This document shows positions 2,165-48,559 of a DNA stretch of 64,000 nt, one piece after another (position 1 is the stretch's first letter; every line of letters begins with the position of its first letter). A program made the translations under genes and the position numbers. Source of the DNA: Candidatus Aldehydirespirator sp. GTDB lineage: Bacteria; Actinomycetota; Acidimicrobiia; Acidimicrobiales; Aldehydirespiratoraceae. The stretch spans positions 3,505,605 to 3,569,604 of the forward strand of contig OZ252146.1 in assembly GCA_965248735.1 (NCBI GenBank), given 5' to 3'. A model generated the notes under the pieces. The model ran no database searches. It saw only the letters and a list, made by a program, of their open reading frames with translations, and was not told where the DNA came from.

Positions 2165-2179
2165 CTCCAGACCGGGCAC

Positions 2180-2227: not shown

Positions 2228-2244
2228 ATGTAGGAGGCGGACGA

Positions 2245-3592: not shown

Positions 3593-3759
3593 CCGCTGCG
3601 GGTGCCCCGGTGAGGAGCGGCACGGACGGAGGCCGTTTCTTGCATTCGACGTAACCGCACTAACGCCCGCTTCCCTCCGGACTCACGGCCGATCAATGAT
3701 GAATCGCACATGATATTTATTGAAACAGCCTGACAGTTGTCACACCCCTATGGCATGAT

Positions 3760-5361: not shown

Positions 5362-5443
5362 CAGCCGGGTAGCACACCCTGGCAGAGCCAACCGAAGCGG
5401 CAGGCGGTTCACGAGCCAACCCGGCCACCGACCAGCCGTAGCT

Positions 5444-29813: not shown

Positions 29814-29823
29814 ACATCACAAG

Positions 29824-29879
29824 CTATGATCAATTCTGAACCTATGATGTACCATAAGTTATAATTCATCATAAGTTAT
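29824..29879 (+). promoter_or_regulatory. AT-rich candidate promoter/operator region of the giant gene
   Basis: TATAAT at 29860-29865. Direct repeats CATAAGTTAT at 29853-62 and 29870-79 (each contains the small palindrome ATAAGTTAT). CTATGAT at 29824-30 and 29842-48. The local AT content is very unlike the flanks. Confidence 0.4.
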
Positions 29880-29895
29880 CGTTGACTGGAAGTCA

Positions 29896-32800
29896 TTGTC
29901 TCTGACGTCTTGCGCAAGGAATCCGCCGGGGGGTGTGGGCGTGCGTGAGCGACCGCGCCGACAGGTGTCGGTGGCGGCGCTGCTGACCGCGGCGCTCCTG
30001 GCCGTGGCCGCGCCGACGCCTGCTCACGCCGACTCGCATCCGGTGGTGACGGTGGCTGCGGGCACGGTGCCGAACACGTTCAGCGCCACCGACGACGACC
30101 CGCACGACACCACCTGGCACTACGCGTGGATCACCGGCAGCGACCCGTGCGGGCCCTCGACCACGTTCCCGTCTGCGCAGACCTACGCCGAGGGCAACGA
30201 CGTCTCCTATGGCACCAGCAACCTCGGCCAGAGGCTGTGCTTGCGCGCCGTGGACTCCAGCAGCAACACGGGCTACGCCACGTCGGACATCGTCGACCAC
30301 CTGGCCCCACCCAGGGTCCCGTTCCGAATCGGCGAGATCATGGCCACGCCCGGCGACGAGTCGGTCACCCTCACATGGGAGGCGCCCTACGACGGCGGCT
30401 CGCCCATCACCCAATACGTAGTCCTCAGCAACCCACCAGGCGGCCTCTGCATCACCAGCGTCCCGGGCTGCACCATGACCGGGCTCGCCAACGGCACCGC
30501 CTACGACTTCGAGGTGAGCACCTTCAACGCTATTGGCTACGAAGACTCCTTCTTCCCGCTACAAGTCACACCCACCGCCGACCCACCGGCCACAGACCCA
30601 CCAGCCACAGACCCACCGGTGACCGACCCACCGGCCACAGACCCACCAGCCACAGACCCACCGGTGACCGACCCACCGGCCACAGACCCACCGGCCACAG
30701 ACCCACCGGTGACAGACCCACCAGCCACAGACCCACCGGTGACCGACCCACCAGCCACAGACCCACCGGTGACCGACCCACCAGCCACAGACCCACCGGT
30801 GACCGACCCACCAGCCACAGACCCACCGGTGACCGACCCACCAGCCACAGACCCACCGGTGACCGACCCACCAGCCACAGACCCACCGGTGACCGACCCA
30901 CCAGCCACAGACCCACCGGTGACCGACCCACCAGCCACAGACCCACCGGTGACCGACCCACCAGCCACAGACCCACCGGTGACCGACCCACCAGCCACAG
31001 ACCCACCGGTGACCGACCCACCAGCCACAGACCCACCGGTGACCGACCCACCGGTGACCGACCCACCGGCCACAGACCCACCGGCCAAAGACCCACCGGT
31101 GACCGCACCAGGCGGAAGCGGAGGCAGTGGGTCCTCGGGCGGCGACGGTGAGCGCGCCGCGCGGACTACGGAAACGACGACGCTGTCGGGCATCACCGTC
31201 GATGGGACCGCGATCCCCGACTTCGATGCGGAGCGGGACTCGTACACGGTCGGGCTCGCCAACGGCGTGGCCACCGCGACCGTGGCGGCCACACCGACCG
31301 CGAGCTCCGCCACCGTGACGTGCTCGGTCGATGCCGATGGCAATGCGGCCGGATGCCAGGTCGCGCTCACGGCGGGCGCGGGAGTCGACCTGACCCTGAC
31401 CGTGACCGATAGCTCGGCAACGATGGACTACACGCTCACGCTCAACCGCGGCCTGACCGGCACCTTCGCGTGGAAGGCGTCCGACGACATCTACGGCCTG
31501 GCCGCCGTGCTTGGAGAAAACACCAGCAGGACGAGGGGCATTTGGAGCGACGGCACCACGTTGTGGGTCGCCGACAATGACCGAAGGAATTCGAAGCTGG
31601 TCGCCTTCAACCTCGAAACCAAGGCACGACAGTCGCTCAACGACATCAACACGGGTGCGAGCGACCTTCTTCATGTGCGCAGGCCGGTGGGCGTCGCGGG
31701 AACTGACGACGGCTCGGTGCTGGTCGCCCGCAGACACAACGGACTCACTGAACAGGCCAGGATTCAAGGATTCCGTCGAAACGACGCATCAGAGTGGCAG
31801 CCCGACATCGAGGAGAGCTATGTACTGCCGTCCGATATTATTCTTGCTCCGTCAATCAGAGGCATCTGGACTCACGGAGAACGGCTGTATATCGCCGACG
31901 ATAGCTCAGACAATGCGGTCTTGGCATTCACCTGGAACTCTGACCGCTCCAACATGGTGCACGATTCCCCCGGGGACATCACTCTCGCCAGCGAGAACGA
32001 CAGTCCGGCCGGCATATGGTCCGACGGCGAGACGATATGGGTCGCCGACGCCCTGACGGAACGAATCTTTGCCCACAAGACGGTCGACGGCCAGCGTGAC
32101 ACCGCCAAGGAGTTCACCCAGAGCCACCTGACCGTGAAGGACACTCCCATCAAACCCTGGGGCATCTGGTCCGACGGCGAGACGATGTGGGTAGTCGACC
32201 GCGGCACCGCGATCGTCTACTCCTTCAACCTGCCGGTGTCGAACAACCCGGGGCTGAGTCAGCTCGAGGTTCAGCACGGGGAGGATCCTGTCGAGCTCAG
32301 TGTGGCCGAGACCACGCACACGGTGGTGCTGCCGGGCAGTCCGACCTCGACAACGTTGACGATTGCGCCGCGCAACCGCTTCGCGACCGTAGACGTCCTC
32401 CCGGCCGATGCCAACCTCAGCCTCGGCGGGTACCAGGTCGACCTGACCGGCGGCCCGGTCGAGGTCACGATCACGGTGACCGCGGCCGACGCCACAACAA
32501 GGCAGGTCTACACGGTCACGGTCGGGCCCGCGCCACTCGAGATCACGAGCGTCATCGCGACGCCCAACACCCGTCTGCTGCAGGTGAGCTGGCACGAACC
32601 GTCGAACAGCGCGACCTTGGGCGTGACCGCCTACGACTTGCGCTACGCACGCACCGACGCAGACAACCTCGAGAACGACGACCAGTGGACCGTGATCGAC
32701 GATGTCTGGACCACGGGCGGCGGCGACCTCTCCTACATCCTCAGGGGATTGACCAACGGTCAGGCCTACTACGTCCAGGTGCGCGCGGTCAACGCCCTGC

Positions 32801-35800
32801 GCGAGGGACCGTGGCTTCCCCACGAGCGCATCAGCGAGTCTGCAACCGGCACGCCCGCGGCTTCAACCTCGCTCGATGCCAGTCTCAGCGCCATCACGGT
32901 CAACGGCGCGGCGATTCCCAACGTTGCAATGGACCGCGGCAACTACACGGTGGGCGTCGCCAGCTCGGTCGCGACGGCGACGGTGATCGGCACACCCAGG
33001 GATGTCGGCGCGACCGTTTCGTGCATCGACGACTCCGATCCGGTGGCCGACGGATGCCAGGCCTCCCTCACTGAGAATGGCAGCACCGAAGTCCAGCTCA
33101 CCGTGACGATAGGCACCACCGTCGGCAACTACACGATCACGATCAACCGCGGGCGAGGCGGGACCTTCCACTGGAAGGCGTCGCAGGACATCTACGGCCT
33201 GGACGCATCTTTGACCACGAGCTTCCCGCGGGGCATCTGGAGCGACGGCACCACGCTGTGGGTGGTGAACAACGGAACACCGAAAGGGTTGTTCGCCTTC
33301 GATCTGGAGACCGGGGCGCGCCAACCCCAAGCGGACATCGTGCAGACACTCGCGGAGACTCAGGCCAGCCTGCGCGGGCTCGCCGGAGCCGACGAGATGA
33401 TATTCGTGGCCGACTCCAAACCCACCAATGCCCTCCGGTACACCAAAGTGTTCGCCTACACCCAGGGCTCGAGCGGCGACTGGCAGCACAACCCACTCCT
33501 CGATCTCACCGGCTCGTCCGTGGGACTCCTGGACACGAACACAATTCAGGGCATCTGGACGGACGGCGAGGTGCTCTGGGGATCCGTCGGAGGAGCCATT
33601 CGCGCCGTTTGGCTCACCGGCCCGAGCAGGAACCAGCGCCTACCGGCGAGAGACTTCGGTATTGCGTCACTCTCACAGTTCCGCGGCCTATGGTCCGACG
33701 GCGAGACGATGTGGGCTGCGGAGTCCTCCGAGATCCGTGCCTACGACATGCTGACCAGAGCGCACGTTGCGAGCAAGTCGTTCGACAGCGACCACCTGCG
33801 GGTGCCAGGCTCGACGGTCGATCCTTGGGGCATCTGGTCCGACGGCGAGACGATGTGGGCCGTCGACAGCGTCAAGGGGAACGCCTACTCCTTCGAGATG
33901 CCCGTCTCGAACAACGCGACGCTGCAACACTTGCGGATCGACGGTGTGGACGCTGCGGAGTTCGACCGGGAGCTGAGCAGCCAGACCCTCGGCCTTGCCA
34001 ACGACGCCTCTACCATCACCCTCGACGCGCGCCCGCGACACTTCCAGGCCGAGTACCTCATCACCTCAACCGACGACGACAGCATGGAAGGGCACCAGAT
34101 CGACGTATCGGGCGCGGCCAAGACCTTCACCGCCACCGTTACCGCGCAGGACGCCGTGACGACGAAGACATACAGCATCGAGATCGGGCGCCTGCCCGCG
34201 CTGATCGTCGGCGCCGACGCGACCCCCGGCCCCAACAGCCTGAGCGTCGGCTGGAGCGCGCCCTCCGACCCGGGCTCATCGGCCGTCACGAGCTACGACC
34301 TGCGCTACGCGGCGACACAGACAGAGCGGTTGCACGAGGATTCTCGATGGACCGAGGTTCCCGGCGTCTGGCAGACCGGGGGCGGCACGCGGTCGCACCA
34401 GATCAGCGGTCTCGACCCGAGAGACGAGTACTACGTGCAGGTCCGCGCCAACAACGGGGTCGGCTCCGGCCCGTGGATGCCGCACTCACGGATCGGCGAG
34501 TCGGGACGCGGCACGCCACAGGCCTCCGGCTCCGATGTCTCTTCACTGAGCAGTCTCAGCGTCAGCCCGGGGGCGCTGTCGCCCGGCTTCGACGCCGGCA
34601 CGACCGGCTACTCCGTGGAGCTGGGCTTCTCGGTCGAACGGATCACCGTTGCCGCCGCGACGACCGACTCGAACGCCGACTACGAGATCCTGGGAGGCAG
34701 CGAGCAGACAACGCTGGTCGACGCCGACCCGAACACGCCCGGATTCGAGGTGGATGTCCCCGCGGGGGCCTACACGATCACGGTCAGCGTGACCTCCCAG
34801 CATCTCCTCGAATCGACCGACTACACGATCAGCATCACCCGGGCCGCCGCCGCAACCGATGCCAATCTGTCGGTCCTCTCGCTCAACGACGCCGATCTCG
34901 ACGAACTGCTGGACTTCGACACCGCCACGACCTCCTACACCTTCGCTGTCCCGAACGACTCTGCTCGGATCACGGTGACGGCGACGGCGCGCAGCGCGAG
35001 GGCCACGATCGCCTTCCTCGACGGCGCCTCGGGCACAGTCGAGCTCCCGGACGCCGATCGGAGAGCGAACGGCTTCCAGATCGATCTCATCGGGGGCCAA
35101 CAGAAGACGTTCAGGGTCGTGGTGACCGCGGAGTCCGGCACCAAGAGGACGTACACGCTGAGAGTCACCCGCTCCCAGCCGCGGGTCGGCGTGGAGGTCG
35201 TGCCGCCCCTCGACGGCGACGCGAACGAGATTCCCTATGTCGAGGGCGACTCGCTGAACTTCACGGTCTCCTTGGGGTCGGCCCTGTCGTCAGACGTCGA
35301 CGTGGCCTACACATTGACCGGCGACATCGTAGCTGGGGCGACCTCGGGCACGGCCAGGATCGTCGCCGGCCAGACCTCGGTCGATGTGACCGTGCCGACC
35401 AGCGGCAACACGCTCTACTCCGACCACCACACGGTGACGCTGACGCTCACCGCTCCCGGCGACGGCGCCTACGCATTCGTGACGAACAAGCAGTCGGTCG
35501 CCGTCGAGGTTCGCGACGACGACTTTCCCGACATCAGCAATGCCGTTGCCGATATGGAAGTGGACGGCACGAGCGTGGTGGAGGGGGGCACCGTCACCGT
35601 GACGGTGCGGATTGAGTTGGACAGCCTCACAGACTTCCCCCACGCGAGTTCGACGCCTGTCCGGCTCTACACGGCAGACCGTCCAGCGAACACGCCAGGA
35701 GATAAAGCGACCGCGGGCGACGACTACCAGGCGCTGGACGTACAGGTCTCCATACCGCCGGAGAACTTCGAAATCGGCAACGGCTTCTTCGGCCCAACAA

Positions 35801-38800
35801 TTGTCGGGACCGCCACCCTCGAGATTCCGATCCTCTTCGACCCCGAGGCCGAGGCCGCCGAGCAGTTCGACGTCCACCTCTCCGACAGCCGCTTCGCATA
35901 TGCCTTCGTAGTCACCCGTTCGCAGACCATCACGATCGCGGCGAACGCGGCAGCCTCGACCGAGGCCGCGCTGGGCTCGCTGAGCGCGTCGCCCGCGGCG
36001 CTCACTCCAGACTTCGCCCCGACGACGTACTCATACGCCGGGTCGGTGGCCAGCACCGTCACGCAGGTGACGCTGGCCGCCGCGCCCAGCGACCCCGACG
36101 CCCACCTGGTGGAGTACCTCGACGACAACAACGACGCGATCGTCGACGCCGACGGCAACGAGGGCAACGGCCTCCAGGCGGCGCTGGCGGTCGACCGCAA
36201 CGTGTTCACGGTGAGAGTCACCGCGGAGGACCGCGCCACCACGCAGGACTACACCGTCACCATCACCCGGCGCCTGTCCGATGTGGCCACCCTCAGCGCC
36301 CTCACGATCCGCGACAGCGCGGCCACGGGCACGTTCACCCAGTCGTTCTCCACCAACTGCAACACCTGCACCCACACCGCACGGGTCGACGGCGACGTGG
36401 AGCAGCTGACGATCACGCCGACGCCGACCGACCAAGACGCCTCGGTCAGCTACCACCGCGGCGATACCGAGCTGTCCGACGCCGACACCGCAACGGCGGA
36501 CACGTTCGAAGTCGACCTCGCGGAGGGCGACAACGTGATCGAGGTCAGGGTCACCGCGGGCGACGGCACAACCACCAAGAGCCATACCCTGACCGTCACC
36601 CGGGCCAGCGACAAACCCGTGGCCAGCGTCCGTGCGCCCACGGGCACGCCCGTCGAGGGCGCCACCCTGGCGTTCGCGGTCAGGCTGTCACGAGCAGCCG
36701 AAGCGGACATCACCATCGGCCTCAGCGCAACACAGACCGGCACCATGATCGTCGCCAAACCACCGAGCGTCACGATCGCGGCGGGCGACACCTCGGCCAC
36801 CGCCGAGGTGACCACCCAGGCCGATCTCATCTGGGAGGAGCACTCCGAAATCACGCTGGAGATCGACGCCAGCACCAACGACGACTACACCGTGAGCGGC
36901 TCCGCCGGCAGCGCCACAAAGACCGTCCAGGACGACGACTTCCCACTCGGCGATGCGGTGCTCGCCCTCACCGCAGACACCGTCGACGAAGGCACATCCG
37001 TCACCGCCACCGTGACCGTCACGACACGGGGCGACGAGCAGCCGCACACCGCCAGCGGGCACATGGTGATAGCGACCGAGGACGGCGTCGGCAGCGGCGG
37101 TGCCGTCTCGCCGGCCGACTTCACGGCTGTGACCGCCCGGCGCTTCAACCTGCCCATGAACAGGTTCACGCAGGTGGACGTCGACGACGATCCCGTAGCG
37201 GAGGACCCTCGCTGGCGGGCCGCCTATGAGCTGACGATCAACACCGTCAACGATGCCAACCCCGAGGTCGCGGAGACGTTCGACGTGCTGCTCCGCACCG
37301 ACTCCACCAGCGAGCACGCCGACAAGCTGTCGGTGTCGGGCTCGCCGGCCACGGCCACCATCCGCACCAGCGACTTCGCCGAGGTGAGGATCAGCAGCAC
37401 GAAGTCCGACAGCACCGAGGGCGCCAGCATCAGCTACACCGTCACACGCTCGGGACCGGCGGCGACAGCGGACATCGTCGTCAACCTGGCCGTCGAAGAA
37501 GACGGCGACATGCTGTCGGCGAGCGACGAGGGCGAGCGGACGGCGACCATCCCCGCCAACCAGAGCTCGACGACGTTCACGCTTCCGACGCAGACCGACA
37601 CCATCTACGAGGAGCACTCCACGATCACGGTCACCGTCGTCGACGGCGGCGGCTACACCCACCGCGAGGCGACCGGCCGCGCGACCGACGTCATCGACGA
37701 CGACGACTTCCCCGCAGCGCAGGCGACGCTGGCCGTCTCCGCGCCCCAGCTCGACGAGGGCGACACCCTGACGCTGACCTACACCGTCACCACCGACGCC
37801 AACGAGATCCCCCACCGCGGCACCGGCCTGCTGCGGGTGGCGGCCGCGTCGGGCACGGCCACTGCCGGGCTCGACTTCGCCGGGCTCGACGAGCAGCTGG
37901 ACTTCGAGGTGGACGACTTCGAGGAAGTCGACGTCGACGACACCGTCAGCGGTGAAGACCTGCGCCGGCAGGCCACCAAGGAATGGGAGATCCTGATCAC
38001 CGACGACAACTCCGGAGAACGGGCCGAGACGTTCACCGTCTCGCTGCGCAGCATCAGCGGCGGATCCAACCCGACCGCGGCCAACATCGACATCGCACCC
38101 TCCGACCCCGCCGAGCTCACGGTCACCATCGGCCCCAGCGACCTTCCGATCATCAGCATCACCACGGACACGGCAACCGTCGTCGAGGGCAACGCCATCG
38201 AATACACCGTGGCCCGCAGTTTCGCCACGACCGAGGCGCTGATGGTCACGGTCGTCGTCACCGAGACCAGCACCCTCGCCGCCGCCGGCGAGACCGGCGA
38301 CCGCACAGTCACCATCGGTGCCGGCCGGCCGTCGGCGACGCTCATCGTGGCCACTTCGACCGACACCGAGTGGGACGAGCACGGAACGGTAACGGCGGTG
38401 GTCGTCGCAGGCGACGGCTACACGGTCAGCGACAGCCGACGAGCGGCGACGCGCAACGTGGAGGACAACGACTTCCCCGAGGCCAGCCTCAGCCTGCAAA
38501 ACAGTCCCGCCACGGTCTGGGAAGGCTTCGACCAATCGCTCGGGTATCTGTTCCTGACCGCCGACGACCACCAGCCCCACAAGTCCACCGGCGAGTTCAT
38601 CCTCTCGATCCTCGGCGGCACCGCGGTCGTGGGACCGCGGGGCGACGGCGTCGACGTGATCGAATTCGAGCCGCTGGTCTTCAGCGTCGACGCGGGCAGC
38701 TTCACGCGAGTCGACCTCGACCTCGGCCCGGGCTTCGACTGGCGTTGGAGCGCGAGCACAATCACCTCGCGACGCCTCAATGTGGTCGATGACATCGATG

Positions 38801-41800: not shown

Positions 41801-44800
41801 TTGCGCTCACCATCGACGTGAACGTGATCGTGGCGAAGGTCACCGCGGAGGACGGCTCGTCGCAGTCGTACACGGTGACAGTGACCCGCGCCCAGCCGAC
41901 GGTCACCGTCACCGCGCCCGCGGCGACGCTGACCGAGGGCAGCACGGTGCCGTTCGTGGTGAGCCGCTCGGAGGCGGCCGGGGACGGCTTGGTGGTGAAG
42001 GTGGAGGTCAGCGAGGTGGGCGAGATGGTGGCCGCCGCGAACGAGACGGTGCACACGGTCACGATCCCCGCCGACGCCCAGAGTCTGCGGCTCGAGATCG
42101 CCAGCGTCAGCGACGAGTCTTGGGAGGCTCACGCCGTGGTGACCGCGGCCGTGCAGGCCGATGCGAGCTACACGGTGGGCAGCCCGGGCTCGGCGGAGCA
42201 GACCGTTTCCGACAACGACTTCCCCGACGCCGAGGCCGTCCTCGAGGTGACCGACGAGGTCGACGAAGGCGGATCGGCCACCGCCACCGTGACGATCACG
42301 ACAGCGGGCGATCACATGCCGCACGAGGACTCGGGTCCGATCCTGGCAAGCACACAGACCGGCTCGGCGGGCGGTGGTGATTTCACGGCGCTCACCGCGA
42401 TGACCGGCACGCTGGAGTTCGCGGCGGACGATTTCGTGGCCGGGAACGGAGACAACGGCTGCCCCACCGGCACGTACTGTCTGAGCCAGAGCGTGGACAT
42501 CGCGATCACCGACGACGACCTGGCCGAGAACGCTGAGACGTTCGCGGTTGCCATGGCCAGGGTGAATCCGGCCAATCCGTCCGAGGCCCGAACCGACGGC
42601 GCGATCACACTCGACGGCACGAGCACGCCGCAGACGGTGACCATCCGACCGAGCGACCGTTCCAGCGTCAACACGCTGGGCAGCCTGAGCCTTGACGGCA
42701 CCGTGCTGACAGCCGCGTCGGACGGGAGCTACGCAGCGACCGTCAACTTCGCCGACGAGCAGATCACCGTGGTTGCCGCCGCGGGAGACAACACCGCGAC
42801 GGTGTCGTTCCTCGACCAGAACGACGCCGAGCTCGACGACGCCTCGACGATTCCGGGCCATCAGGTCGATGTGGTGATCGGAGAGACCGTGTTCAAGGTG
42901 CTGGTCACCGCCCAGGACACCACCGCAGCGACCTACACGGTGACGGCGACGCGGTCCGGGCCGGTGCTGACGCTGAGCGTGACCGCCACCGAGCTGACCG
43001 AGGGCGGCAACGTGGTGTTCACAGTGTCGCGCAACGGGGCCACGTCGGACACCACTGCTTTCGAGCTGGCGGTGACTGAGACAGGCGGGCCGATGGCAAC
43101 GGCCGGACTCAGCACCTCGCCGCTGTCCCTGTCCATCGGCAGCGGGCAGAACTCGGTCACCCACACGGTGCCCACCGAGGGCGACGACAACTGGGAGCCC
43201 CATGCCCAGATCACCGCCGCCGCCACCTCGGCCTACAGGTTCGAGAACGACACCAACTCGATCACCAAGGAAGTGCTCGACGACGACTTCCCGGCCGCGG
43301 AGGCCGTGCTCACCGTGTCGCCGACGACGATCGCGGAGCGGGACGGCGCCACGGTGACCGCGACGCTGACCGTCACAACCGACGCCAACGAGCAGCCCCA
43401 CAAGGCCAGCGGCACGATCCGGCTGGCCACCGCGCCGAACACGGCGAACACGAGCGACTACCAGGCGATCAGCTCGACTGCGGGCGCGGTGAGCTTCGAC
43501 GCCGCAGACTTCGCTGAAGTCGACATCGGCGGCGGGGTGATGCGCTGGCAGGCGAGCCGGGCGGTGCAGATCGGCATCGTCGACGACGCCATCAAGGAGC
43601 CGCAGGAGCAGTTCAGTGTCACGATGGCGGTCACGACGGGATCGAGGCCGACCGACGCGCACATCCGGCTGCACGCTGATGCCGAGTTCGTGGTCAGCAT
43701 CGATCCGAGCGACCGTTCCAGCGACGCATCGCTGCAGAGTCTCGGGCTCAGTGCGGGTCGCCTGGACACCGCGTTCCAGTCGGGAACCATCGCCCACACC
43801 GTGACGGTGCCGTTCGGGAGCCCCCGAATCACCGTCAGCCCGCAGGCCACCGACTCGAACGCCGTGTCGGTGGAGGTGCTCGACGGCACTGACCAGACCG
43901 CCGAGGTGGACGTCGACCCGAACACGCCGGGCACGCAGGTCGACCTTGAGCTCAACACGCCGAGGGCGATCGCCATCACGGTGACTGCGGAGGACACCAC
44001 CACGATGCGCACCTACACCCTGACGATCACGCGCCAGTTGCCCGAACTGACGATCAGCGTCACCGACGACGAACTGGCCGAAGGCGAAAGCGTAGTCGCG
44101 ACGATCAGCCGTGACGCCGCCACTGATGAGACGACCGCGTTCACCCTGAGCGTCAGCGAGGACGGCACGATGGTCGATGACGTGCTCGAGACGGACGGCG
44201 TGACGTACCTGATTCAGGCCGAGCAGACCGCGTTCGAGCTGGAGATCCCCACCCAGGCCGACGACGTCTGGGACGCCGCCTCGACGGTCAGCGTGGAACT
44301 CGAGGAGAACGACGCCGCCTACAGAACGTCGGGCCCGCTGACGGTGACCGCCGCGGTGAGCGACAACGACTTCCCCGAGGCGGCCGCGGTGCTGGCCGTG
44401 TCGAGCGACACCGTCGACGAGAGCCAGACGGTCACGGCCACGGTGACCATCACGACGGCGCGTGCCGAGCAGCCCAACGAGGACGGGGGCAAGCTGCTGG
44501 TGAGCACGTCCGACGGGCCCGACCCCGACGGTGCCGGCAACGGAGCGCCGGCCACCGCAGGCATCGACTACCGAGCGCTCACCGCGACGACGGGAGAGTT
44601 GACCTTCCGCCAGCAAGAGTTCGTCGAAGGGGACGAGACGAACGACTGCCCGGTCTCTAGGTGGTGCGCGAGCAAGAACATCGAGATCGCCACCCTCGAC
44701 GACAACGAGAGCGAGCAAGTCGAGCGGTTCACCCTCAGCCTGGCTGCGGTCACGACCGATCCGGACCCGACCGATTCCAACATCGCGCTCGACCCCGACC

Positions 44801-47799
44801 GCAGCAGCCAGCACGTCGACATCGCGCCCAACGACCTGACCGACAAGGCCGGCCTCCAGGCCATCGAGCTGACCGGCGGCGAGCTCAGCCCGACCTTCAT
44901 CAGCACGACCACCGAGTACACGGCCAGCATCGGCTTCGACCATCCACAGATCACGATCGCGCCCGAGACGCTGAACCCCGGTGAGACGTTCGACTTCTAC
45001 GGCCAGGAGGGACTCACCCTCCTGGACGACGCCGACATCACCGCGCCCGGCTTCCAGGTCGACCTGCCCGTGGGCACGGCCGTGGTCGTCAGGATCGTGG
45101 CCACCGCCCGGGACCGGCTGACTATCGAGACCTACACGGTCACGTTCACGCGCCAGGTGCCAGAGGTTGCCATTGGCGTGCCCCAGACCTCCGGGCTCGA
45201 GGAGGGCGCCGAGCTGACCTTCACCGTGACGCTGAACGGGCCGGTGGAAGCCCCCGCCGGGCTCGACGTGACGCTGACGATCGACGAGACGGGCGGGATG
45301 CTGCCTCCGCCCGGCGAATCCCCCCGAACGGTCACGGTCAACGTGCCCCAGGGCCGGACCACGGCCACACACACGCTGGCGACCGTGGACGACGATGCGT
45401 GGGAGGAGCACTCCACGATCAGCGTGTCCGTCTCGCCGACACCGGGCTCGTACACGGTTCCGTCCGGCTCGGAGGCGGCGTCGCACATCGTCATGGACGA
45501 CGACTTCCCCGAGGCGACGGCCGTTCTGGAGGTCTCGCCCCGACCGGTGGACGAAGGCGGCACCGTCACCGCGGCGGTCGTGATGACGACGGCGCGTGAC
45601 GAGCAGCCCCGCGAGGACGCAGGCACAATCCTCCTCAGCACCACCGATGGCACCGCCACCGCCGGCGACGACTACACCGCCATCTCGCCTGCGTCGGGGG
45701 CGCTCACGTTCGCCCAGGCCGACTTCAAGCGCGTCGACCTCGACACCGACTCCGGCGACAATGTCACGGACTATCGATGGCGCGCGGCCAAGGCGGCGAC
45801 CATCTCTGTGGCCAACGACACCGCCGACGAGCCCGACGAGACCTTCAGCGTGGCCATGGCCGCGGACGCGACGGGCTCGTCGCCGACGGACGGTGCGATC
45901 ACGCTGGACTCGAGCACCTCCTCGCTCGACGTGACGATCAACGCGAGTGATGTGCACCGTGTCGCCATCGTCACGGTGGGCAGCCCTAGCCAGACTGGCG
46001 CGACCGCGACGGTCTCAATCACCAACCCGAGCCGGGCGAGCGTCACGGTTTACCTGCGGTACCGGCCGGATGGCGGGGCGTACGGGCCGGCGGTGGAGAT
46101 GCAGACCTCCCGGGCCAGCGTGCAGTTCGAGCTCAGCGGGCTGAGCGAGGCGACGCTGTACGAAGTGCAGGCCTCCCTGGACAATGGGTTCGCGTCGCCC
46201 AAGACCGCGCGGTTCTCCACGCTCGGGAGTGCGCCCGCGGTGTCCGAGCTCGAGGTGGAGAACGCGGGCCAGACCGGGGCGTCGGTGACTGCGTTCATCG
46301 CCAACGTCGGCACCACCACTGCCGGGACATCGGCTCGCAGCCTCGGCGATCGAACAGTCATGGCGCTCACGGCCAAGACGCAGCCTGTCGGCGCACCAAC
46401 GGTCGGGGCACGAACAGTCGGCGCAGCAACAGTCGGGGCACGAACAATCAGCGCACCAACAGTCCAGACGCAGCCGCCCGAGCACACGGTCAGCCTGCGC
46501 TACCGCTACGAGGGCGAACCATGGTCACAGGAGCAGTCGATGACGACCACGGCGTCCTCGGTGACCTTCCATCTCACCGGCTTGCGGGCCGGCGCTACGC
46601 CAGAGGTGGAGGCGACGCTGAGCGACAGCTTCGATGATGTGGGCGTGCAGTCGTTGCAGTTCGACACGGAGCCCCCCGCCGTGACCGCGGTCGCGGTCGA
46701 CGCCGCCGACATCACCGCACACACGGCCAAGCTCACGGTGACCGTCAGCGACCGCAACGGCGACCGGGTACATCTGCGCTACCGCGCCGACAGCCATTGG
46801 ACGCAGATGAGCAAGGTCTTCGACGAGGGCGGCAGCGACGACACATTCGAACTGCCCGGCCTCGTCGCGGGCACCGCGTACAACGTGGAGGCTTCGTTTG
46901 ACAGCACCTTCGGCGACAGGACTGCAACCAGGTGCATGAGCTTCGTCACCGACACCGCACCGGACTCCGACGATGGCCGCCAGACCGGCGCGAACTGCCG
47001 GGGATCGGCGGTCACCCCTGGCAACGTCGGCCGAGGAGGGCCAGCGCCTGGCGGCGGCGGAGGGCTACCGCCCGGTGGCGAGCCGGAGCCCGAGACGGCG
47101 CAGCCGGATGTGGTCTTCGGCGACGTGCCCCAAGACGCCTGGTACCACGACGCCGTGCAGCACATAGCCCGGCTCGGCATCACCACAGGCTGTCTCACCG
47201 AGCCGCTGCGCTACTGCCCCGCCCAACCGGTCAGCCGAGCCCAATTGGCCGCGTTCCTGTCACGGCTTCTCGGCGGACCCCCTGCCGACAACGCGCCGGA
47301 TGTGGTCTTCGGCGACGTGCCCCAAGACGCCTGGTACCACGACGCCGTGCAGCACATAGCCCGGCTCGGCATCACCACAGGCTGTCTCACCGAGCCGCTG
47401 CGCTACTGCCCCGCCCAACCGGTCAGCCGAGCCCAGATGGCCGCGTTCCTGTCACGGCTTCTCGGCGGACCCCCTGCCGACAACGCGCCGGATGTGGTCT
47501 TCAGCGACGTGCCCCAAGACGCCTGGTACCACGACGCCGTGCAGCACATAGCCCGGCTCGGCATCACCACAGGCTGTCTCACCGAGCCGCTGCGCTACTG
47601 CCCCGCCCAACCGGTCAGCCGAGCCCAAATGGCCGCGTTCCTGAGCCGAGCCATCACCCACTCCGAAGCCCGCGACGACAACGCCGCAGCCACTTGGGCC
47701 GGCACCTTCACACCCCAAGCCGTGCGATCGGGGGCCGCCCTCCAAGTTAGCCAGTGGCCACCCGGCGGGCCAGGGACCGGAACGCCATCACGAAGGTGA
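29896..47799 (+). CDS. giant (5,967 aa) secreted, SLH-anchored mosaic cell-surface protein
   Basis: A single open frame of 17.9 kb with coherent domain grammar throughout. Sec-type signal ...RRQVSVAALLTAALLAVAAPTPAHA/D. The likely start is GTG 29935 or 29941 rather than TTG 29896. See the sub-features. Confidence 0.93.
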   Translation: MSLTSCARNPPGGVGVRERPRRQVSVAALLTAALLAVAAPTPAHADSHPVVTVAAGTVPNTFSATDDDPHDTTWHYAWITGSDPCGPSTTFPSAQTYAEGNDVSYGTSNLGQRLCLRAVDSSSNTGYATSDIVDHLAPPRVPFRIGEIMATPGDESVTLTWEAPYDGGSPITQYVVLSNPPGGLCITSVPGCTMTGLANGTAYDFEVSTFNAIGYEDSFFPLQVTPTADPPATDPPATDPPVTDPPATDPPATDPPVTDPPATDPPATDPPVTDPPATDPPVTDPPATDPPVTDPPATDPPVTDPPATDPPVTDPPATDPPVTDPPATDPPVTDPPATDPPVTDPPATDPPVTDPPATDPPVTDPPATDPPVTDPPATDPPVTDPPVTDPPATDPPAKDPPVTAPGGSGGSGSSGGDGERAARTTETTTLSGITVDGTAIPDFDAERDSYTVGLANGVATATVAATPTASSATVTCSVDADGNAAGCQVALTAGAGVDLTLTVTDSSATMDYTLTLNRGLTGTFAWKASDDIYGLAAVLGENTSRTRGIWSDGTTLWVADNDRRNSKLVAFNLETKARQSLNDINTGASDLLHVRRPVGVAGTDDGSVLVARRHNGLTEQARIQGFRRNDASEWQPDIEESYVLPSDIILAPSIRGIWTHGERLYIADDSSDNAVLAFTWNSDRSNMVHDSPGDITLASENDSPAGIWSDGETIWVADALTERIFAHKTVDGQRDTAKEFTQSHLTVKDTPIKPWGIWSDGETMWVVDRGTAIVYSFNLPVSNNPGLSQLEVQHGEDPVELSVAETTHTVVLPGSPTSTTLTIAPRNRFATVDVLPADANLSLGGYQVDLTGGPVEVTITVTAADATTRQVYTVTVGPAPLEITSVIATPNTRLLQVSWHEPSNSATLGVTAYDLRYARTDADNLENDDQWTVIDDVWTTGGGDLSYILRGLTNGQAYYVQVRAVNALREGPWLPHERISESATGTPAASTSLDASLSAITVNGAAIPNVAMDRGNYTVGVASSVATATVIGTPRDVGATVSCIDDSDPVADGCQASLTENGSTEVQLTVTIGTTVGNYTITINRGRGGTFHWKASQDIYGLDASLTTSFPRGIWSDGTTLWVVNNGTPKGLFAFDLETGARQPQADIVQTLAETQASLRGLAGADEMIFVADSKPTNALRYTKVFAYTQGSSGDWQHNPLLDLTGSSVGLLDTNTIQGIWTDGEVLWGSVGGAIRAVWLTGPSRNQRLPARDFGIASLSQFRGLWSDGETMWAAESSEIRAYDMLTRAHVASKSFDSDHLRVPGSTVDPWGIWSDGETMWAVDSVKGNAYSFEMPVSNNATLQHLRIDGVDAAEFDRELSSQTLGLANDASTITLDARPRHFQAEYLITSTDDDSMEGHQIDVSGAAKTFTATVTAQDAVTTKTYSIEIGRLPALIVGADATPGPNSLSVGWSAPSDPGSSAVTSYDLRYAATQTERLHEDSRWTEVPGVWQTGGGTRSHQISGLDPRDEYYVQVRANNGVGSGPWMPHSRIGESGRGTPQASGSDVSSLSSLSVSPGALSPGFDAGTTGYSVELGFSVERITVAAATTDSNADYEILGGSEQTTLVDADPNTPGFEVDVPAGAYTITVSVTSQHLLESTDYTISITRAAAATDANLSVLSLNDADLDELLDFDTATTSYTFAVPNDSARITVTATARSARATIAFLDGASGTVELPDADRRANGFQIDLIGGQQKTFRVVVTAESGTKRTYTLRVTRSQPRVGVEVVPPLDGDANEIPYVEGDSLNFTVSLGSALSSDVDVAYTLTGDIVAGATSGTARIVAGQTSVDVTVPTSGNTLYSDHHTVTLTLTAPGDGAYAFVTNKQSVAVEVRDDDFPDISNAVADMEVDGTSVVEGGTVTVTVRIELDSLTDFPHASSTPVRLYTADRPANTPGDKATAGDDYQALDVQVSIPPENFEIGNGFFGPTIVGTATLEIPILFDPEAEAAEQFDVHLSDSRFAYAFVVTRSQTITIAANAAASTEAALGSLSASPAALTPDFAPTTYSYAGSVASTVTQVTLAAAPSDPDAHLVEYLDDNNDAIVDADGNEGNGLQAALAVDRNVFTVRVTAEDRATTQDYTVTITRRLSDVATLSALTIRDSAATGTFTQSFSTNCNTCTHTARVDGDVEQLTITPTPTDQDASVSYHRGDTELSDADTATADTFEVDLAEGDNVIEVRVTAGDGTTTKSHTLTVTRASDKPVASVRAPTGTPVEGATLAFAVRLSRAAEADITIGLSATQTGTMIVAKPPSVTIAAGDTSATAEVTTQADLIWEEHSEITLEIDASTNDDYTVSGSAGSATKTVQDDDFPLGDAVLALTADTVDEGTSVTATVTVTTRGDEQPHTASGHMVIATEDGVGSGGAVSPADFTAVTARRFNLPMNRFTQVDVDDDPVAEDPRWRAAYELTINTVNDANPEVAETFDVLLRTDSTSEHADKLSVSGSPATATIRTSDFAEVRISSTKSDSTEGASISYTVTRSGPAATADIVVNLAVEEDGDMLSASDEGERTATIPANQSSTTFTLPTQTDTIYEEHSTITVTVVDGGGYTHREATGRATDVIDDDDFPAAQATLAVSAPQLDEGDTLTLTYTVTTDANEIPHRGTGLLRVAAASGTATAGLDFAGLDEQLDFEVDDFEEVDVDDTVSGEDLRRQATKEWEILITDDNSGERAETFTVSLRSISGGSNPTAANIDIAPSDPAELTVTIGPSDLPIISITTDTATVVEGNAIEYTVARSFATTEALMVTVVVTETSTLAAAGETGDRTVTIGAGRPSATLIVATSTDTEWDEHGTVTAVVVAGDGYTVSDSRRAATRNVEDNDFPEASLSLQNSPATVWEGFDQSLGYLFLTADDHQPHKSTGEFILSILGGTAVVGPRGDGVDVIEFEPLVFSVDAGSFTRVDLDLGPGFDWRWSASTITSRRLNVVDDIDEEALEQFSLNLVAAIMVDSSNPADGNIMVTSPGVIQISANDIDLRSEDATLSGLDLRTDNSIPALSPGFVGNQLEYTATVAFAETELTITPTTNDMNASVTYREGTIGSLTAVTGGSFQVNLAEGPNVIEIHVAAHDPRYTETYTVAVTRQPQVSIAVKTTGAVTEGGHVEFTVTRSRASDADLVVDLTVTDVGDVIDPDGEGAKQVTIPADQRSADYTVTTRGNTAYAARAEVTVAVTGGDGYTPATTGGSASKDIRDDDFPGAEITLTVDKNTAAEGESVTATVTVQVSNTDILHAGVDAGVIVLRASDTASSTPGTDYSFTEMELPFNYGDFSPEDIDPGNPQDFRSTARRTVTIRITDDNVTEGDEDLTLLLVRPDRQQQPDALHPNIRLGTATATVTIPANDSADATLSALALTDGTDSIGHLDPAFRTSVTEYRAGVGFDTTSVTLAATAHHEEARVSIAGRAQRDRTSSETLNLRVGENVLTVVVTAENDTTTQTYTVRVTRAPQVTSLTPTASDPAAAYATTATYDIVFRGHWNQQVTPPRVPANAHFTALVGGVHGDAVSFLTAGGQATAGVEAMAETGATQGLQAEVQIAMDAADPTAYGTFRQTVGGGPTAVATLNEIVFTSEFPRLTLTSMIAPTPDWFVGVSGLPMLDNQGRWLRERTVNLYPWDAGTEDDVSDDNGFSLGGLDTDPQENIRSLRGAGPFTIERIASLEVTLHSVATMRELDENTGAGVNIGAAVASPAAPPAGSGTITYSLAGADAGSFEINTTTGQLRAKSGVDYDFEARSGNSYALTVVATDAGPDPEVVTNIDVTIILRNVEEAGELAVAPAAAGVNVLLTASLSDPDGGVADETWRWERSDNGVSGWSAIANADTATYIPVADDEAKYLRVTVTYDDAQGMGRSLSQVLGPVEAPAQLSDDSTLSALSLSGLTLNQSFSSSVTTYTAAADYTTVQTTVTATAGAAADGAAVQILDGNGDAIPDADDRTGGHQVALTIDVNVIVAKVTAEDGSSQSYTVTVTRAQPTVTVTAPAATLTEGSTVPFVVSRSEAAGDGLVVKVEVSEVGEMVAAANETVHTVTIPADAQSLRLEIASVSDESWEAHAVVTAAVQADASYTVGSPGSAEQTVSDNDFPDAEAVLEVTDEVDEGGSATATVTITTAGDHMPHEDSGPILASTQTGSAGGGDFTALTAMTGTLEFAADDFVAGNGDNGCPTGTYCLSQSVDIAITDDDLAENAETFAVAMARVNPANPSEARTDGAITLDGTSTPQTVTIRPSDRSSVNTLGSLSLDGTVLTAASDGSYAATVNFADEQITVVAAAGDNTATVSFLDQNDAELDDASTIPGHQVDVVIGETVFKVLVTAQDTTAATYTVTATRSGPVLTLSVTATELTEGGNVVFTVSRNGATSDTTAFELAVTETGGPMATAGLSTSPLSLSIGSGQNSVTHTVPTEGDDNWEPHAQITAAATSAYRFENDTNSITKEVLDDDFPAAEAVLTVSPTTIAERDGATVTATLTVTTDANEQPHKASGTIRLATAPNTANTSDYQAISSTAGAVSFDAADFAEVDIGGGVMRWQASRAVQIGIVDDAIKEPQEQFSVTMAVTTGSRPTDAHIRLHADAEFVVSIDPSDRSSDASLQSLGLSAGRLDTAFQSGTIAHTVTVPFGSPRITVSPQATDSNAVSVEVLDGTDQTAEVDVDPNTPGTQVDLELNTPRAIAITVTAEDTTTMRTYTLTITRQLPELTISVTDDELAEGESVVATISRDAATDETTAFTLSVSEDGTMVDDVLETDGVTYLIQAEQTAFELEIPTQADDVWDAASTVSVELEENDAAYRTSGPLTVTAAVSDNDFPEAAAVLAVSSDTVDESQTVTATVTITTARAEQPNEDGGKLLVSTSDGPDPDGAGNGAPATAGIDYRALTATTGELTFRQQEFVEGDETNDCPVSRWCASKNIEIATLDDNESEQVERFTLSLAAVTTDPDPTDSNIALDPDRSSQHVDIAPNDLTDKAGLQAIELTGGELSPTFISTTTEYTASIGFDHPQITIAPETLNPGETFDFYGQEGLTLLDDADITAPGFQVDLPVGTAVVVRIVATARDRLTIETYTVTFTRQVPEVAIGVPQTSGLEEGAELTFTVTLNGPVEAPAGLDVTLTIDETGGMLPPPGESPRTVTVNVPQGRTTATHTLATVDDDAWEEHSTISVSVSPTPGSYTVPSGSEAASHIVMDDDFPEATAVLEVSPRPVDEGGTVTAAVVMTTARDEQPREDAGTILLSTTDGTATAGDDYTAISPASGALTFAQADFKRVDLDTDSGDNVTDYRWRAAKAATISVANDTADEPDETFSVAMAADATGSSPTDGAITLDSSTSSLDVTINASDVHRVAIVTVGSPSQTGATATVSITNPSRASVTVYLRYRPDGGAYGPAVEMQTSRASVQFELSGLSEATLYEVQASLDNGFASPKTARFSTLGSAPAVSELEVENAGQTGASVTAFIANVGTTTAGTSARSLGDRTVMALTAKTQPVGAPTVGARTVGAATVGARTISAPTVQTQPPEHTVSLRYRYEGEPWSQEQSMTTTASSVTFHLTGLRAGATPEVEATLSDSFDDVGVQSLQFDTEPPAVTAVAVDAADITAHTAKLTVTVSDRNGDRVHLRYRADSHWTQMSKVFDEGGSDDTFELPGLVAGTAYNVEASFDSTFGDRTATRCMSFVTDTAPDSDDGRQTGANCRGSAVTPGNVGRGGPAPGGGGGLPPGGEPEPETAQPDVVFGDVPQDAWYHDAVQHIARLGITTGCLTEPLRYCPAQPVSRAQLAAFLSRLLGGPPADNAPDVVFGDVPQDAWYHDAVQHIARLGITTGCLTEPLRYCPAQPVSRAQMAAFLSRLLGGPPADNAPDVVFSDVPQDAWYHDAVQHIARLGITTGCLTEPLRYCPAQPVSRAQMAAFLSRAITHSEARDDNAAATWAGTFTPQAVRSGAALQVSQWPPGGPGTGTPSRR
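30576..31106 (+). repeat. 15-bp coding tandem repeat, about 35 copies of TDPP(A/V)
   Basis: acagacccaccagcc / accgacccaccggcc / acagacccaccggtg units head to tail, giving a Pro/Thr-rich stalk after the first FN3 domain (30330-30570). Confidence 0.95.
31183..34530 (+). other. duplicated super-module: cadherin-like beta-sandwich, 5 Trp-rich blades, cadherin-like beta-sandwich, FN3 (two copies: 31183-32860 and 32866-34530)
   Basis: Blades carry GIWSDG(T/E)T(L/I/M)WV(A/V)D-type motifs (8 clear and 2 degenerate). FN3 copies contain TAYDLRYA...GL.....YYVQVRA.N. The cadherin-like units follow L..L.V.G..L.P.F......YT..V. Confidence 0.7.
34537..40330 (+). other. array part 1: cadherin-like beta-sandwich domains alternating with five Calx-beta-like domain pairs
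   Basis: Recurrent pattern V.EG....FTV.RS.A...DL.V.L.V...G...(T)IPA.Q.S....V.T..D...E.H...T..V, then D(D/N)DFP, then VDEG..VTATVTVTT...E.PH...G...D(Y/F)......F...DF..VD...R(W)...E.F.V.L. The D(D/N)DFP boundaries lie near 35515, 36935, 37695, 38465 and 39575. Confidence 0.7.
40340..41290 (+). other. Spondin_N-like domain (40340-40986) followed by a cadherin repeat (40987-41290)
   Basis: YDIVFRGHWN...HFTALVGGVH...MIAPTPDWFVGVSGL...NLYPWDAGTEDD matches the F-spondin N-terminal domain signature from memory. ITYSLAGADAGSFEINTTTGQLRAKSGVDYDFE...YALTVVATDAG matches the cadherin-repeat pattern. Confidence 0.65.
41575..45950 (+). other. array part 2: four more cadherin-like beta-sandwich + Calx-beta-like pair modules
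   Basis: Same grammar as 34537-40330. The D(D/N)DFP boundaries lie near 42215, 43280, 44365 and 45495. Confidence 0.7.
45955..46950 (+). other. three FN3-like domains, the second interrupted by a 5x pentapeptide (VGA.T) 15-bp repeat at 46384-46460
   Basis: Repeated pattern T.A.VTV......V.LRYR....W...........F.L.GL...T.Y.V.AS.D..F. Confidence 0.5.
47104..47679 (+). repeat. three near-identical 192-bp repeats, each encoding an SLH (S-layer homology) domain
   Basis: Copies start at 47104, 47296 and 47488. Each encodes FGDVPQDAWYHDAVQHIARLGITTGCLTEPLRYCPAQPVSRAQ(L/M)AAFLSR, which fits the SLH consensus (F.DV...W....I..L...GI..G.....P...V.R.Q.A.FL.R). Only a handful of nucleotide differences separate the copies. 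Confidence 0.85.
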
Positions 47800-48559
47800 C
47801 GGCACCCAGTCCGACGATGGCGGCAATTCCCTTGCCCAGAGAGGCCACGTCCCAGTTGTCGGACATCAGCGACCGCATCGCCTCGAGCAGGTAGGTCACG
47901 GGGTTCCAGGCGGCCACGGTCTGCATCCATCCGGTCATCAGCTCGCGCGGCAGGTACGCGGGCGTCAGGAAGGCGAAGGGGAAGAAGATCAGGAATGACG
48001 AGTTGACCGCGGCTGGATTCCCGGTGCGCAGGGCCACCGTGTACGGGAATCCCGTGAAGGAGAGGCTCCACGCCACCGCCAGGACCAGGAAGACCAGGAT
48101 CCCCGGCAGCCCGGTTCCGAAACTCACGCCGAAGACGAAGCCCATGGCGATCACGACGAGCGACAACGCCACTGCCAGAGCAACGTCGGCGACCATCATG
48201 CCGAGCAGCAGCGTGGTCCGGCGTACCGGCGTGACGAGCATCCGGTCTAGGTAGCCGGTCTGGATGTCGATGACCAGAACCGACGCGCGGGAGATGCCGG
48301 TGACCGCGAAGATTATGGCGACGGGTATCTGGAACGCCCTGTAGTCGATGCCGGGGGTGCGCTCCACGAACGACTCCAGCGCGCCGACGTTGACGATGAA
48401 GAAGAACGTCGGGATGATCAGAGCCGGGGCCATCGCCTCCGGCTCGCGCAGCAGGCTGCGCACGGAGCGGCGGGCCACCGTGGCGATGTCGGTGAGGATC
48501 CCGACAGGCCGGACCATGCCGCCGGCGGGCACGGAGGGCGCACCAGTCTGAAGGCTCAC
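47747..48559 (-). CDS. ABC-2 type transporter permease (DrrB-like)
   Basis: 270 aa with six hydrophobic helices. GTGA overlap with the upstream ATPase gene. Its 3' end overlaps the giant gene 3' end by 53 nt (convergent). Confidence 0.85.
   Translation of the reverse strand: MSLQTGAPSVPAGGMVRPVGILTDIATVARRSVRSLLREPEAMAPALIIPTFFFIVNVGALESFVERTPGIDYRAFQIPVAIIFAVTGISRASVLVIDIQTGYLDRMLVTPVRRTTLLLGMMVADVALAVALSLVVIAMGFVFGVSFGTGLPGILVFLVLAVAWSLSFTGFPYTVALRTGNPAAVNSSFLIFFPFAFLTPAYLPRELMTGWMQTVAAWNPVTYLLEAMRSLMSDNWDVASLGKGIAAIVGLGAVTFVMAFRSLARRVATG

Follow-up and report, generated by a model that had tools for sequence, protein, structure and literature searches.

The 64,000-nucleotide stretch of DNA analysed here, referred to as the window (NCBI GenBank assembly GCA_965248735.1, contig OZ252146.1, positions 3,505,605 to 3,569,604 of the forward strand), comes from Candidatus Aldehydirespirator sp., a member of the Acidimicrobiales, and contains a single open reading frame (ORF) of 5,967 codons between a pfkB gene and an ABC-2 permease gene. 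The locus raises the question of what so large a protein does for the cell that makes it, and of how its gene came to stand where it does. The answer that we favour, with fair confidence, is that the gene encodes a giant (~5,950 amino acids (aa), ~620 kDa, pI ~4.1) wall-anchored surface fibre of a probably sponge-associated member of the Acidimicrobiales, which to judge from its sequence is most likely an adhesin. The gene is a precise 17.9-kb single-gene insertion between its two neighbours, which is a new observation.

Reading frame and domain order

The frame (29896..47799, + strand) is translated without an internal stop. By our own arithmetic such a run has a chance of ~e^-120 in ~69% GC DNA, where ~2% of random codons are stops. 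The GC contents of the first, second and third codon positions (GC1/GC2/GC3) are 0.63/0.53/0.87 over the whole frame, and since GC3 is 0.77-0.94 in each block of 900 nucleotides (nt) the frame is coding from end to end. A previous interpretation, made by a model from the letters and their ORFs and called here the sequence-only reading, had described an uninterrupted frame of 5,967 aa, which the ORF listing, the stop-free translation and the coding GC3 bear out. The frame stands, but its start is probably another: TTG 29896 is the earliest possible start, whereas GTG 29935 or GTG 29941 is more likely to be the real one, giving a protein of ~5,952-5,954 aa. Upstream of both lies AAGGAA (29916-29921) followed by a G-run, and from either GTG the translation reads M-(G)-V-RERPRRQVSVAALLTAALLAVAAPTPAHA|D, which to the eye is a classic signal peptide of the Sec type. 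The ~5,954-aa form has a mass of 620.6 kDa and a pI of 4.14, consists of 13% Thr, 12% Ala, 9% Asp and <1% Lys, and contains ~47 globular domains in total.

For the domain analysis Pfam was run on three overlapping thirds of the protein, with additional per-domain scans, and the domain borders were taken from in-house hidden Markov models (HMMs) built on the internal copies. The parts of the gene, all on the + strand, are the following.

29935..30030, +, likely start (GTG 29935 or 29941) and Sec-type signal peptide (by eye from the sequence; predicted cleavage AHA|D)
30031..30318, +, orphan N-terminal head domain, aa 46-141, the putative distal tip of the fibre (no match better than E=0.014)
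30319..30585, +, FN3 domain 1, aa 142-230 (Pfam fn3 4.3e-11)
30580..31105, +, stalk of 35 x TDPP(A/V) (TRF period 30 nt, 17.5 copies, 93% matches; Pfam Extensin_1 2.8e-30)
31177..32850, +, cassette 1: Cadherin-like, five-bladed propeller (31450-32247), Cadherin-like, FN3 (AlphaFold2, Foldseek, Pfam)
32878..34512, +, cassette 2: the identical four-domain order, propeller at 33151-33915 (self-comparison offset ~560 aa; alignment)
34540..40326, +, rod part 1: 6 Cadherin-like domains and 5 Calx-like/Calx-beta pairs (in-house HMM census; pair alignment; NCX1 profile match)
40390..41565, +, central insert: Spondin_N 40390-40923, classical cadherin repeat 40999-41268, Ig-like sandwich 41278-41565 (Pfam, NCBIfam)
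41587..45951, +, rod part 2: four [Cadherin-like + Calx pair] units (HMM census; pair alignment; pair 6 model)
45952..46953, +, three FN3-like domains, the second with a 15-nt-repeat insert at 46387-46464 (fn3 8e-6, Arylsulfotran_N 8e-6, CBM_56 2e-5; HMM census; TRF)
46993..47106, +, Gly/Pro-rich linker (translation)
47107..47670, +, three SLH repeats (Pfam SLH 1.5e-14, 3 stretches; TRF 192-nt period, 98% identical)
47671..47799, +, C-terminal tail, the last 17 codons and the stop (47749-47799) lying in the conserved flank (homology with relatives resumes at 47748/47749)

The order of parts proposed in the sequence-only reading was recovered item by item by profile and structure evidence, the 'Ig-like' domain being weakly supported. 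Of the families that it had named, SLH, Calx-beta, Cadherin-like, Cadherin and Spondin_N scored above the Pfam threshold and fn3 was matched as well, and the propeller cassette and a Calx pair were modelled confidently.

The three SLH domains at the C-terminus are well established. PF00395 scored 54.1 bits against a cut-off of 20.8 in the per-domain scan and 6.4e-10 in the scan of the thirds, and the triple aligns over all three repeats with the SLH region of Bacillus anthracis Sap (3pyw, 2.9e-8). Characterised SLH domains, such as those in the Sap and SpaA structures, have in each repeat a conserved TRAE/TRAQ-type motif with an Arg. Every repeat of the giant protein contains ...PVSRAQ(L/M)AAFLSR..., in which S replaces T and the R and Q are kept. 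Beyond the SLH triple follows a C-terminal tail. The orthologous protein P0121 ends ~39 residues earlier, directly after '...AITHAQDRDDPDG'. For its final 17 residues the giant protein depends on conserved flank DNA, so that this piece is a side effect of the insertion. At their 3' ends the giant ORF and the ABC-2 permease gene (47747-48880, -), which are convergent, overlap by 53 nt.

In a sequence scan the giant protein showed no LPXTG, no RTX motif (GGxGxD) and no second hydrophobic segment, and its Pfam matches include no catalytic, cohesin or dockerin family. Three known types of surface protein were considered and rejected. An RTX or type I-secreted giant adhesin (LapA, MpIBP) is excluded because GGxGxD is missing, the signal is N-terminal and Sec-type, and the SLH domains are C-terminal; a sortase-anchored adhesin of the MSCRAMM type because there is no LPxTG; and a cellulosome-anchoring scaffoldin because neither cohesin nor dockerin appears among the Pfam matches.

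Two kinds of beta-sandwich recur through the protein. The Cadherin-like domain (PF12733) was delimited in 14 copies by the in-house HMM, with E-values of 1.9e-57, 6.2e-54 and 9e-18 on the thirds and scores of 192 and 181 bits in two segments. The second kind forms nine two-domain Calx pairs, found by alignment and HMM census. Calx-beta (PF03160) scored 41.4 bits against a cut-off of 27 (E=1.7e-10) in the C-terminal third, single pairs falling below the Pfam cut-off at 16.8 bits, and a profile built from all nine pairs found the calcium-binding domains of NCX1 (1e-4), the DGTAxAGxDY and DDxxxExxExF motifs falling in register. The model of pair 6 (pLDDT 92) had NCX1/CALX CBD12 tandems as its top ten Foldseek matches in the PDB (E 4e-10 to 3e-7). 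The nine Calx-beta-like pairs of the sequence-only reading are borne out, with one correction: their first halves are divergent sandwiches of LapA-like/Calx-like type (LapA 2.4e-5). All nine share invariant E-G, DxDFP, E, F and D-x3-E-x2-E positions, and Ca2+ binding is no more than plausible from the invariant acidic residues D109, D111, E127, D210, E214 and E217.

The rod is interrupted near the middle by the central insert, whose three domains differ in how well they could be identified. Spond_N (PF06468) matched at 8.1e-30 (104.8 bits, cut-off 24) and the NCBIfam spondin domain NF038123 at 4e-23 (82.6 bits, cut-off 40). The cadherin repeat (PF00028, aa 3702-3791) is marginal, lying just above the cut-off (7.7e-7, 29.9 bits, cut-off 28.8), and the match recurs, marked 'weak', in the orthologues. 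The domain that the sequence-only reading had called Ig-like gave weak profile matches (ZirU 8e-5, SCAB-Ig 0.18).

At the N-terminus the head domain found nothing better than E=0.014 in Pfam, NCBIfam or the PDB, the PDB matches being noise, and aa 40-228 (head and FN3) had no homologue in the word-indexed protein search. Over the thirds the fn3 family reached E=2.9e-32. The GC3 of the head, FN3 and TDPP stalk (0.77-0.81) is below that of the rest of the gene.

The stalk is followed by the two propeller cassettes, which are 41% identical to each other. The AlphaFold2 model of a cassette, built from an alignment of 38 homologues (pLDDT 92.6, pTM 0.88), shows a sandwich, a five-bladed propeller, a second sandwich and an FN3 domain. 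As single domains, the best Foldseek matches to the propeller were the five-bladed bacterial glutaminyl cyclases 3mbr and 3nol (TM 0.70, root-mean-square deviation 3.7-4.6 Å); next in line were NHL propellers and, from an archaeal S-layer protein, a YVTN propeller, and the whole cassette matched the propeller and FN3 ectodomains of Sevenless and ROS1. The propeller fold is established in the model, but at 12-15% identity these neighbours carry no indication of function. For the 'Trp-rich blades' of the sequence-only reading Pfam gives just a short-motif match to PF22729 and a sub-threshold NHL match. The former ('NACHT C-terminal helical domain 3') was judged a spurious hit to the blade motif GIWSDGxTxWV, because the region folds confidently as all-beta.

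The consensus of a blade is PxGIWSDGxTxWVxD....LYAY.L.TG.R....DF.L. The propeller belongs to a large family (125 word-indexed matches), whose members are often fused to SLH, Cadherin-like or cadherin domains (P0001-P0120, P0123, P0124, P0126) and of which some, P0123 among them, have many repeated propellers. This family has no proper Pfam model, its members bearing the PF22729 tag instead.

Orthologues and the exchange of the two ends

When aa 3380-4579 were run in a full HMMER scan against 1.84 billion cluster representatives, 15,217 matches reached E<=1e-3 and 2,148 reached E<=1e-30, among the latter many proteins of 2,000-6,500 aa. A scan of the JGI metagenomes with the spondin/cadherin/Ig segment gave one weak match only. 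Also new are three contigs that hold collinear orthologues over 3,500-5,500 aa, with 55-71% aa identity.

L081: matches aa 422-3991, 55-66% identity, several frameshifts, 2x contig
L084 (protein P0121): matches aa 437-5928, 61-65% identity, one frameshift, 3x contig, ends in three SLH repeats
L085: matches aa 421-5694, 57-71% aa identity, 73% nt identity over 14.5 kb

Because the core module order is conserved in these collinear orthologues it is not an assembly chimera. The ends of the proteins are more variable. The window protein begins with its N-domain, FN3 and TDPP stalk, and this head domain is absent from all three orthologues; the protein of L084 has a signal peptide and two Big_12-like domains instead, and that of L085 has no head, its first Cadherin-like domain directly following the signal peptide. 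The opposite end of L085 bears three CWB2 repeats (PF04122, 1.2e-19, 3 stretches) where the window protein and L084 have three SLH. A further protein of 4,607 aa with the same module order (P0124) has a propeller, a Cadherin-like domain and an unknown domain at the anchor position.

SLH and CWB2 are unrelated non-covalent wall-binding modules, and because they occupy one position we take wall attachment to be the selected function of the C-terminal end. This anchor swap is, in our view, the strongest indirect evidence for a wall anchor. As it marks the C-terminus as the wall end, the N-terminus would be the distal end that bears the specificity. The natural swaps (SLH or CWB2, and three different heads) thus point to the functional 'business' ends of the protein, and across genomes the family would appear to evolve by cassette exchange of head and wall anchor.

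The orthologues lie in genomic contexts that differ from that of the window. That of L085 is found among further large Cadherin-like/fn3 genes (L085:1-190 and L085:17986-21801), and in L082:1-2518 related SLH/propeller genes adjoin an rve-family integrase and a Type ISP restriction gene, which suggests clusters of surface-protein genes in variable regions.

SLH anchoring itself is in use in the clade, since other proteins that combine a propeller with SLH are present in related chromosomes. In four related Acidimicrobiales chromosomes other SLH genes are found less than 10 kb from pepN (L016:12594-13097, L022:1163-1615, L030:8727-9413, L031:3606-4127), with 29-50% identity to the SLH triple of the window, so that this kind of anchoring appears to be common among the relatives.

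Insertion at the pfkB/ABC-2 locus

The insertion was mapped by blastn of the window against pepN-anchored loci, with the junctions read by eye. The sequence-only reading had missed that the gene is absent at this locus in related genomes. In eight relatives (L001, L021, L024, L012, L025, L041, L003, L004) the flank ending at ~29792 meets the flank that begins at 47748/47749, with 0-310 bp between them. The left flank is the PfkB gene and the right one starts at the stop codon of the ABC-2 permease gene; nt identity in the flanks is 82-95% in the eight relatives and 90-95% in the three closest. Two features on the + strand describe the inserted DNA.

29802..47746, +, inserted segment of 17,945 bp: AT-rich leader and giant gene minus its last 53 nt (17 codons and stop) (blastn against pepN-anchored loci)
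29802..29934, +, AT-rich leader or putative promoter region (GC 44.5% against a ~69% background)

Apart from unrelated SLH genes, no piece of the giant protein was found in 80 pepN loci. Neither the three closest relatives nor the five more distant have the gene at this locus, which makes a single gain in the lineage of the window the most parsimonious history. The relative synonymous codon usage of the gene correlates with that of seven neighbouring genes at r=0.95, and this native-like usage suggests a donor of similar base composition. The insert consists of just the leader and the giant ORF, with no integrase, transposase or other recombinase gene. No direct or inverted repeat of at least 8 bp was seen at the junctions, and the 64-kb window contains no tRNA and no Rfam family.

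The leader contains TATAAT at 29860-29865 and two copies of CATAAGTTAT. The sole match in a consensus promoter scan was on the minus strand (29896-29868, sigma-70-like ATGACT-17-TATGAT), directed toward the PfkB gene. Through the insertion PfkB has been cut off from the ABC operon upstream of it, and its promoter may now be provided by the inserted DNA.

The pfkB/ABC-2 spacer at the site of insertion is hypervariable in the relatives, from 0 to 310 bp (L024:7720-8030, L021:7880-7970, L001:1470-1615). In L024 it holds ~4 tandem copies of a ~66-bp unit (CCCGCTCGGCCTCTAGTTTCCCGCTCTTGTTCGC...GGCCACGGCC) with the small palindrome GGCCG-CT-CGGCC, and one copy of GCCGCTCGGCCTCT is found at the left junction of the window (29788-29801). 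Such a unit may be a REP-like element or a terminator marking a recombination hot spot.

The flanks of the giant gene are ordinary chromosome. Upstream are genes for uracil phosphoribosyltransferase, an HNH/DUF222 protein, inositol-type sugar catabolism, LacI and TetR regulators and the PfkB kinase; downstream are the ABC-2 transporter pair, pepN, ribF, truB, infB, nusA, rimP, rseP and dxr. The ABC-2 permease frame (47747-48880, -) is open for 377 codons, of which the first ATG, GTG or TTG leaves 270 aa (47747..48559), and its Pfam match begins at residue 132 of the open frame; the gene may have an unusual start or a degraded N-terminus. At 2000-5400 of the window there is a patch of lower GC (0.643 at 2001-4000) with a winged-helix HTH_34 ORF (2637-3491) and a DUF222 and HNH endonuclease gene (3760-5361). 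Genes of this last type are often mobile in Actinobacteria, and the patch may be a second small accessory insertion.

Proposed role and comparison with known systems

The nearest genomes, with PepN as anchor, are metagenome-assembled genomes (MAGs) of Acidimicrobiales or 'Candidatus Aldehydirespirator', L001 (Langseth_MAG_00132), L021 and L024 having 93% PepN identity, and many relatives bear the names of sponge MAGs (SB06xx_bin, APA_bin, CAR4_bin). The genus, formerly UBA11606, belongs to the family Aldehydirespiratoraceae of sponge-symbiotic Actinobacteriota, and a significant enrichment of the symbionts in fn3, Calx-beta, LRR and cadherin proteins, PF12733 and PF00028 among the latter, is reported (PMC11706023). 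Robbins et al. found cadherin and fn3 genes to be enriched in sponge MAGs, abundant in Actinobacteriota and among the laterally transferred genes (PMC8163846). Because this enrichment is published for the clade, the 'animal-type' domain mix of the giant protein is no oddity and is a known signature of the sponge niche. The presence/absence polymorphism against eight relatives likewise fits the published claims of lateral transfer.

Based on its domains we propose the following mechanism. The protein, whose gene would have arrived in this genome as a precise single-gene insertion, would be exported by the Sec pathway through its N-terminal signal peptide and retained non-covalently on the wall by the three SLH repeats, whose ligand is presumably a pyruvylated secondary cell-wall polymer. 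The remaining ~40 beta-sandwich domains, Cadherin-like and tandem Calx-beta pairs, would stand out from the cell in the form of a rod. Seawater Ca2+ would probably stiffen it by way of the acidic inter-domain motifs DDDFP and DDxxxExxExF, which are invariant. By our own estimate, which takes ~4 nm for each of ~44 sandwich domains and adds the stalk, the fibre may have a length of the order of 150-250 nm. Candidate ligand-binding parts are the two propeller cassettes, the Pro/Thr stalk and the orphan head at the distal end, and the spondin-N/cadherin insert in the middle of the protein. The most likely role would be adhesion to sponge matrix, sponge cells or other bacteria. The sequence-only reading had also arrived at a long SLH-anchored fibre for adhesion; the structural half of that proposal is strengthened by the 3 x CWB2 of L085 at the SLH position, and adhesion itself stays at the level of a probable role.

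Several points weigh against this proposal. The 64-kb window was scanned for SLH-ligand machinery, which the sequence-only reading had named as a thing to look for, and within these limits no csaB-type pyruvyltransferase (PS_pyruv_trans) and no gene for a secondary cell-wall polymer turned up. Any ligand is a guess, because the head domain has no homologue. The structural neighbours of the propeller include enzymes (glutaminyl cyclases), and the propeller may have a non-adhesive role. The orthologous contigs carry one to several frameshifts at 2-3x coverage, intactness being shown for the window gene alone, and the sponge habitat of this organism is deduced from its relatives.

It is unlikely, in our opinion, that the protein is instead a structural component of the envelope, an S-layer or sheath former with its SLH end on the wall and its sandwiches serving as a coat or spacer that holds off phages, predators or the phagocytes of the sponge. 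In favour of this, S-layer proteins typically have an SLH triple, and the top match in the PDB is itself an S-layer protein, Sap; the YVTN propeller of an archaeal S-layer protein is also among the structural neighbours, and the composition is strongly acidic, with much Thr and Ala. However, absence at the locus from eight close relatives is more what one expects of an accessory protein than of a core envelope component, and its 47 heterogeneous domains and variable heads do not resemble S-layer proteins, which typically have one crystallisation domain, nor was any self-assembly domain recognised.

A quite improbable function is that of a substrate-capture or feeding scaffold, in which the propellers and the CBM-like/FN3-like modules would hold host or particulate glycans (e.g. 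sponge glycosaminoglycans), as SLH-anchored scaffoldins and SLH-bearing glycosidases do. Five-bladed propellers include lectins, which would suit such a scaffold. The FN3-like region has a CBM_56 match (2e-5), but this is weak and below the Pfam cut-off. The gene adjoins sugar-catabolism genes (PfkB kinases, a LacI regulator and inositol-pathway-like genes) and attachment genes have been linked with host-glycan degradation (PMC8163846), but these sugar genes lie in the conserved flank and have nothing to do with the insertion, and the Pfam matches include no catalytic, cohesin or dockerin family.

Finally, an assembly artefact or decaying pseudogene, that is, a chimeric join or collapsed or expanded repeats staying in frame by chance, is very hard to believe: the TDPP units (93% identical) and the SLH triple (98%) are repeats whose copy number is easily mis-assembled, the ORF terminates in flank DNA with no stop of its own and the orthologous contigs have frameshifts, but the 17.9 kb are stop-free with coding GC3 all along, the junctions are base-precise between two conserved genes, the internal paralogues are 31-41% identical and so cannot collapse, the domain order recurs in three independent assemblies, and the orthologue frameshifts lie in contigs labelled 2x and 3x, presumably for their coverage.

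Returning to the adhesive fibre, we would very tentatively go one step further and suggest that it is a strain-variable, laterally exchanged 'one-gene symbiosis island' that moves from one sponge symbiont to another as a single cassette, swapping its head, which would set the specificity for host or partner, and its anchor, SLH or CWB2 according to the wall polymer of the recipient. If this were true, the fibre would decide which sponge or mesohyl niche a strain colonises, or whether the strain evades phagocytosis. Constructs for binding assays can be made from the propeller cassettes, the spondin insert and the SLH triple, no adhesin-ligand pair being known in the symbiosis.

Among known systems, the C. 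difficile CWB2 proteins (SlpA and the Cwp family) resemble the orthologue L085, which has the same triple-repeat non-covalent anchor binding a wall polymer; the window protein has SLH instead of CWB2 and no further similarity to them. The SLH proteins of Firmicutes (B. anthracis Sap and EA1; the clostridial scaffoldins OlpB and SdbA) have the three tandem SLH in common with the giant protein, whose triple aligns in full length with the SLH of Sap. Cellulosome-anchoring scaffoldins likewise have a C-terminal SLH triple on a long modular extracellular protein. Unlike these, the giant protein has no cohesin or crystallisation domains, belongs to the Actinomycetota and is roughly ten times larger; its polymer ligand is presumed.

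The giant Ca2+-rigidified adhesins LapA, MpIBP, SiiE and BapA of Gram-negative bacteria resemble the proposed fibre in being long rods of tandem Ig-like/Calx-like sandwiches, with acidic inter-domain Ca2+ sites and distal ligand-binding modules. They are exported by type I secretion, with C-terminal RTX repeats and N-terminal retention in the outer membrane. The giant protein, by contrast, starts with a Sec signal, is devoid of GGxGxD and carries at its C-terminus a wall anchor of the Gram-positive type, which reverses the polarity.

The closest likeness is to the eukaryotic-like proteins of sponge symbionts (PMC11706023, PMC8163846), with which the giant protein shares host clade, Pfam families, a proposed role in attachment and the tendency to lateral transfer; it carries PF12733, PF00028, PF00041 and PF03160, all of them counted in these papers. 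Those studies give domain counts per genome and no architectures, so that the enrichment in cadherin, fibronectin-III and Calx-beta is reported as numbers, the shape and display of the proteins being essentially undescribed. In the literature searched, no ~6,000-aa size, SLH anchor, propeller cassettes, spondin insert or single-gene insertion is described. The sequence-only reading could name no characterised counterpart, and this agrees with the literature searched, where no member has been characterised experimentally; uniqueness is not upheld, since the class is published and there are more than 2,000 cluster representatives with these modules. The locus offers a complete and intact example with a defined polarity, from Sec signal and distal heads through a rod probably stiffened by Ca2+ to the wall anchor, and its architecture, anchor swap and clean insertion or deletion are useful and partly new. 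The giant protein thus in all likelihood belongs to the published class of eukaryotic-like surface proteins in sponge-symbiotic Actinobacteriota, of which it is an unusually complete and well-resolved member rather than a new kind of system.

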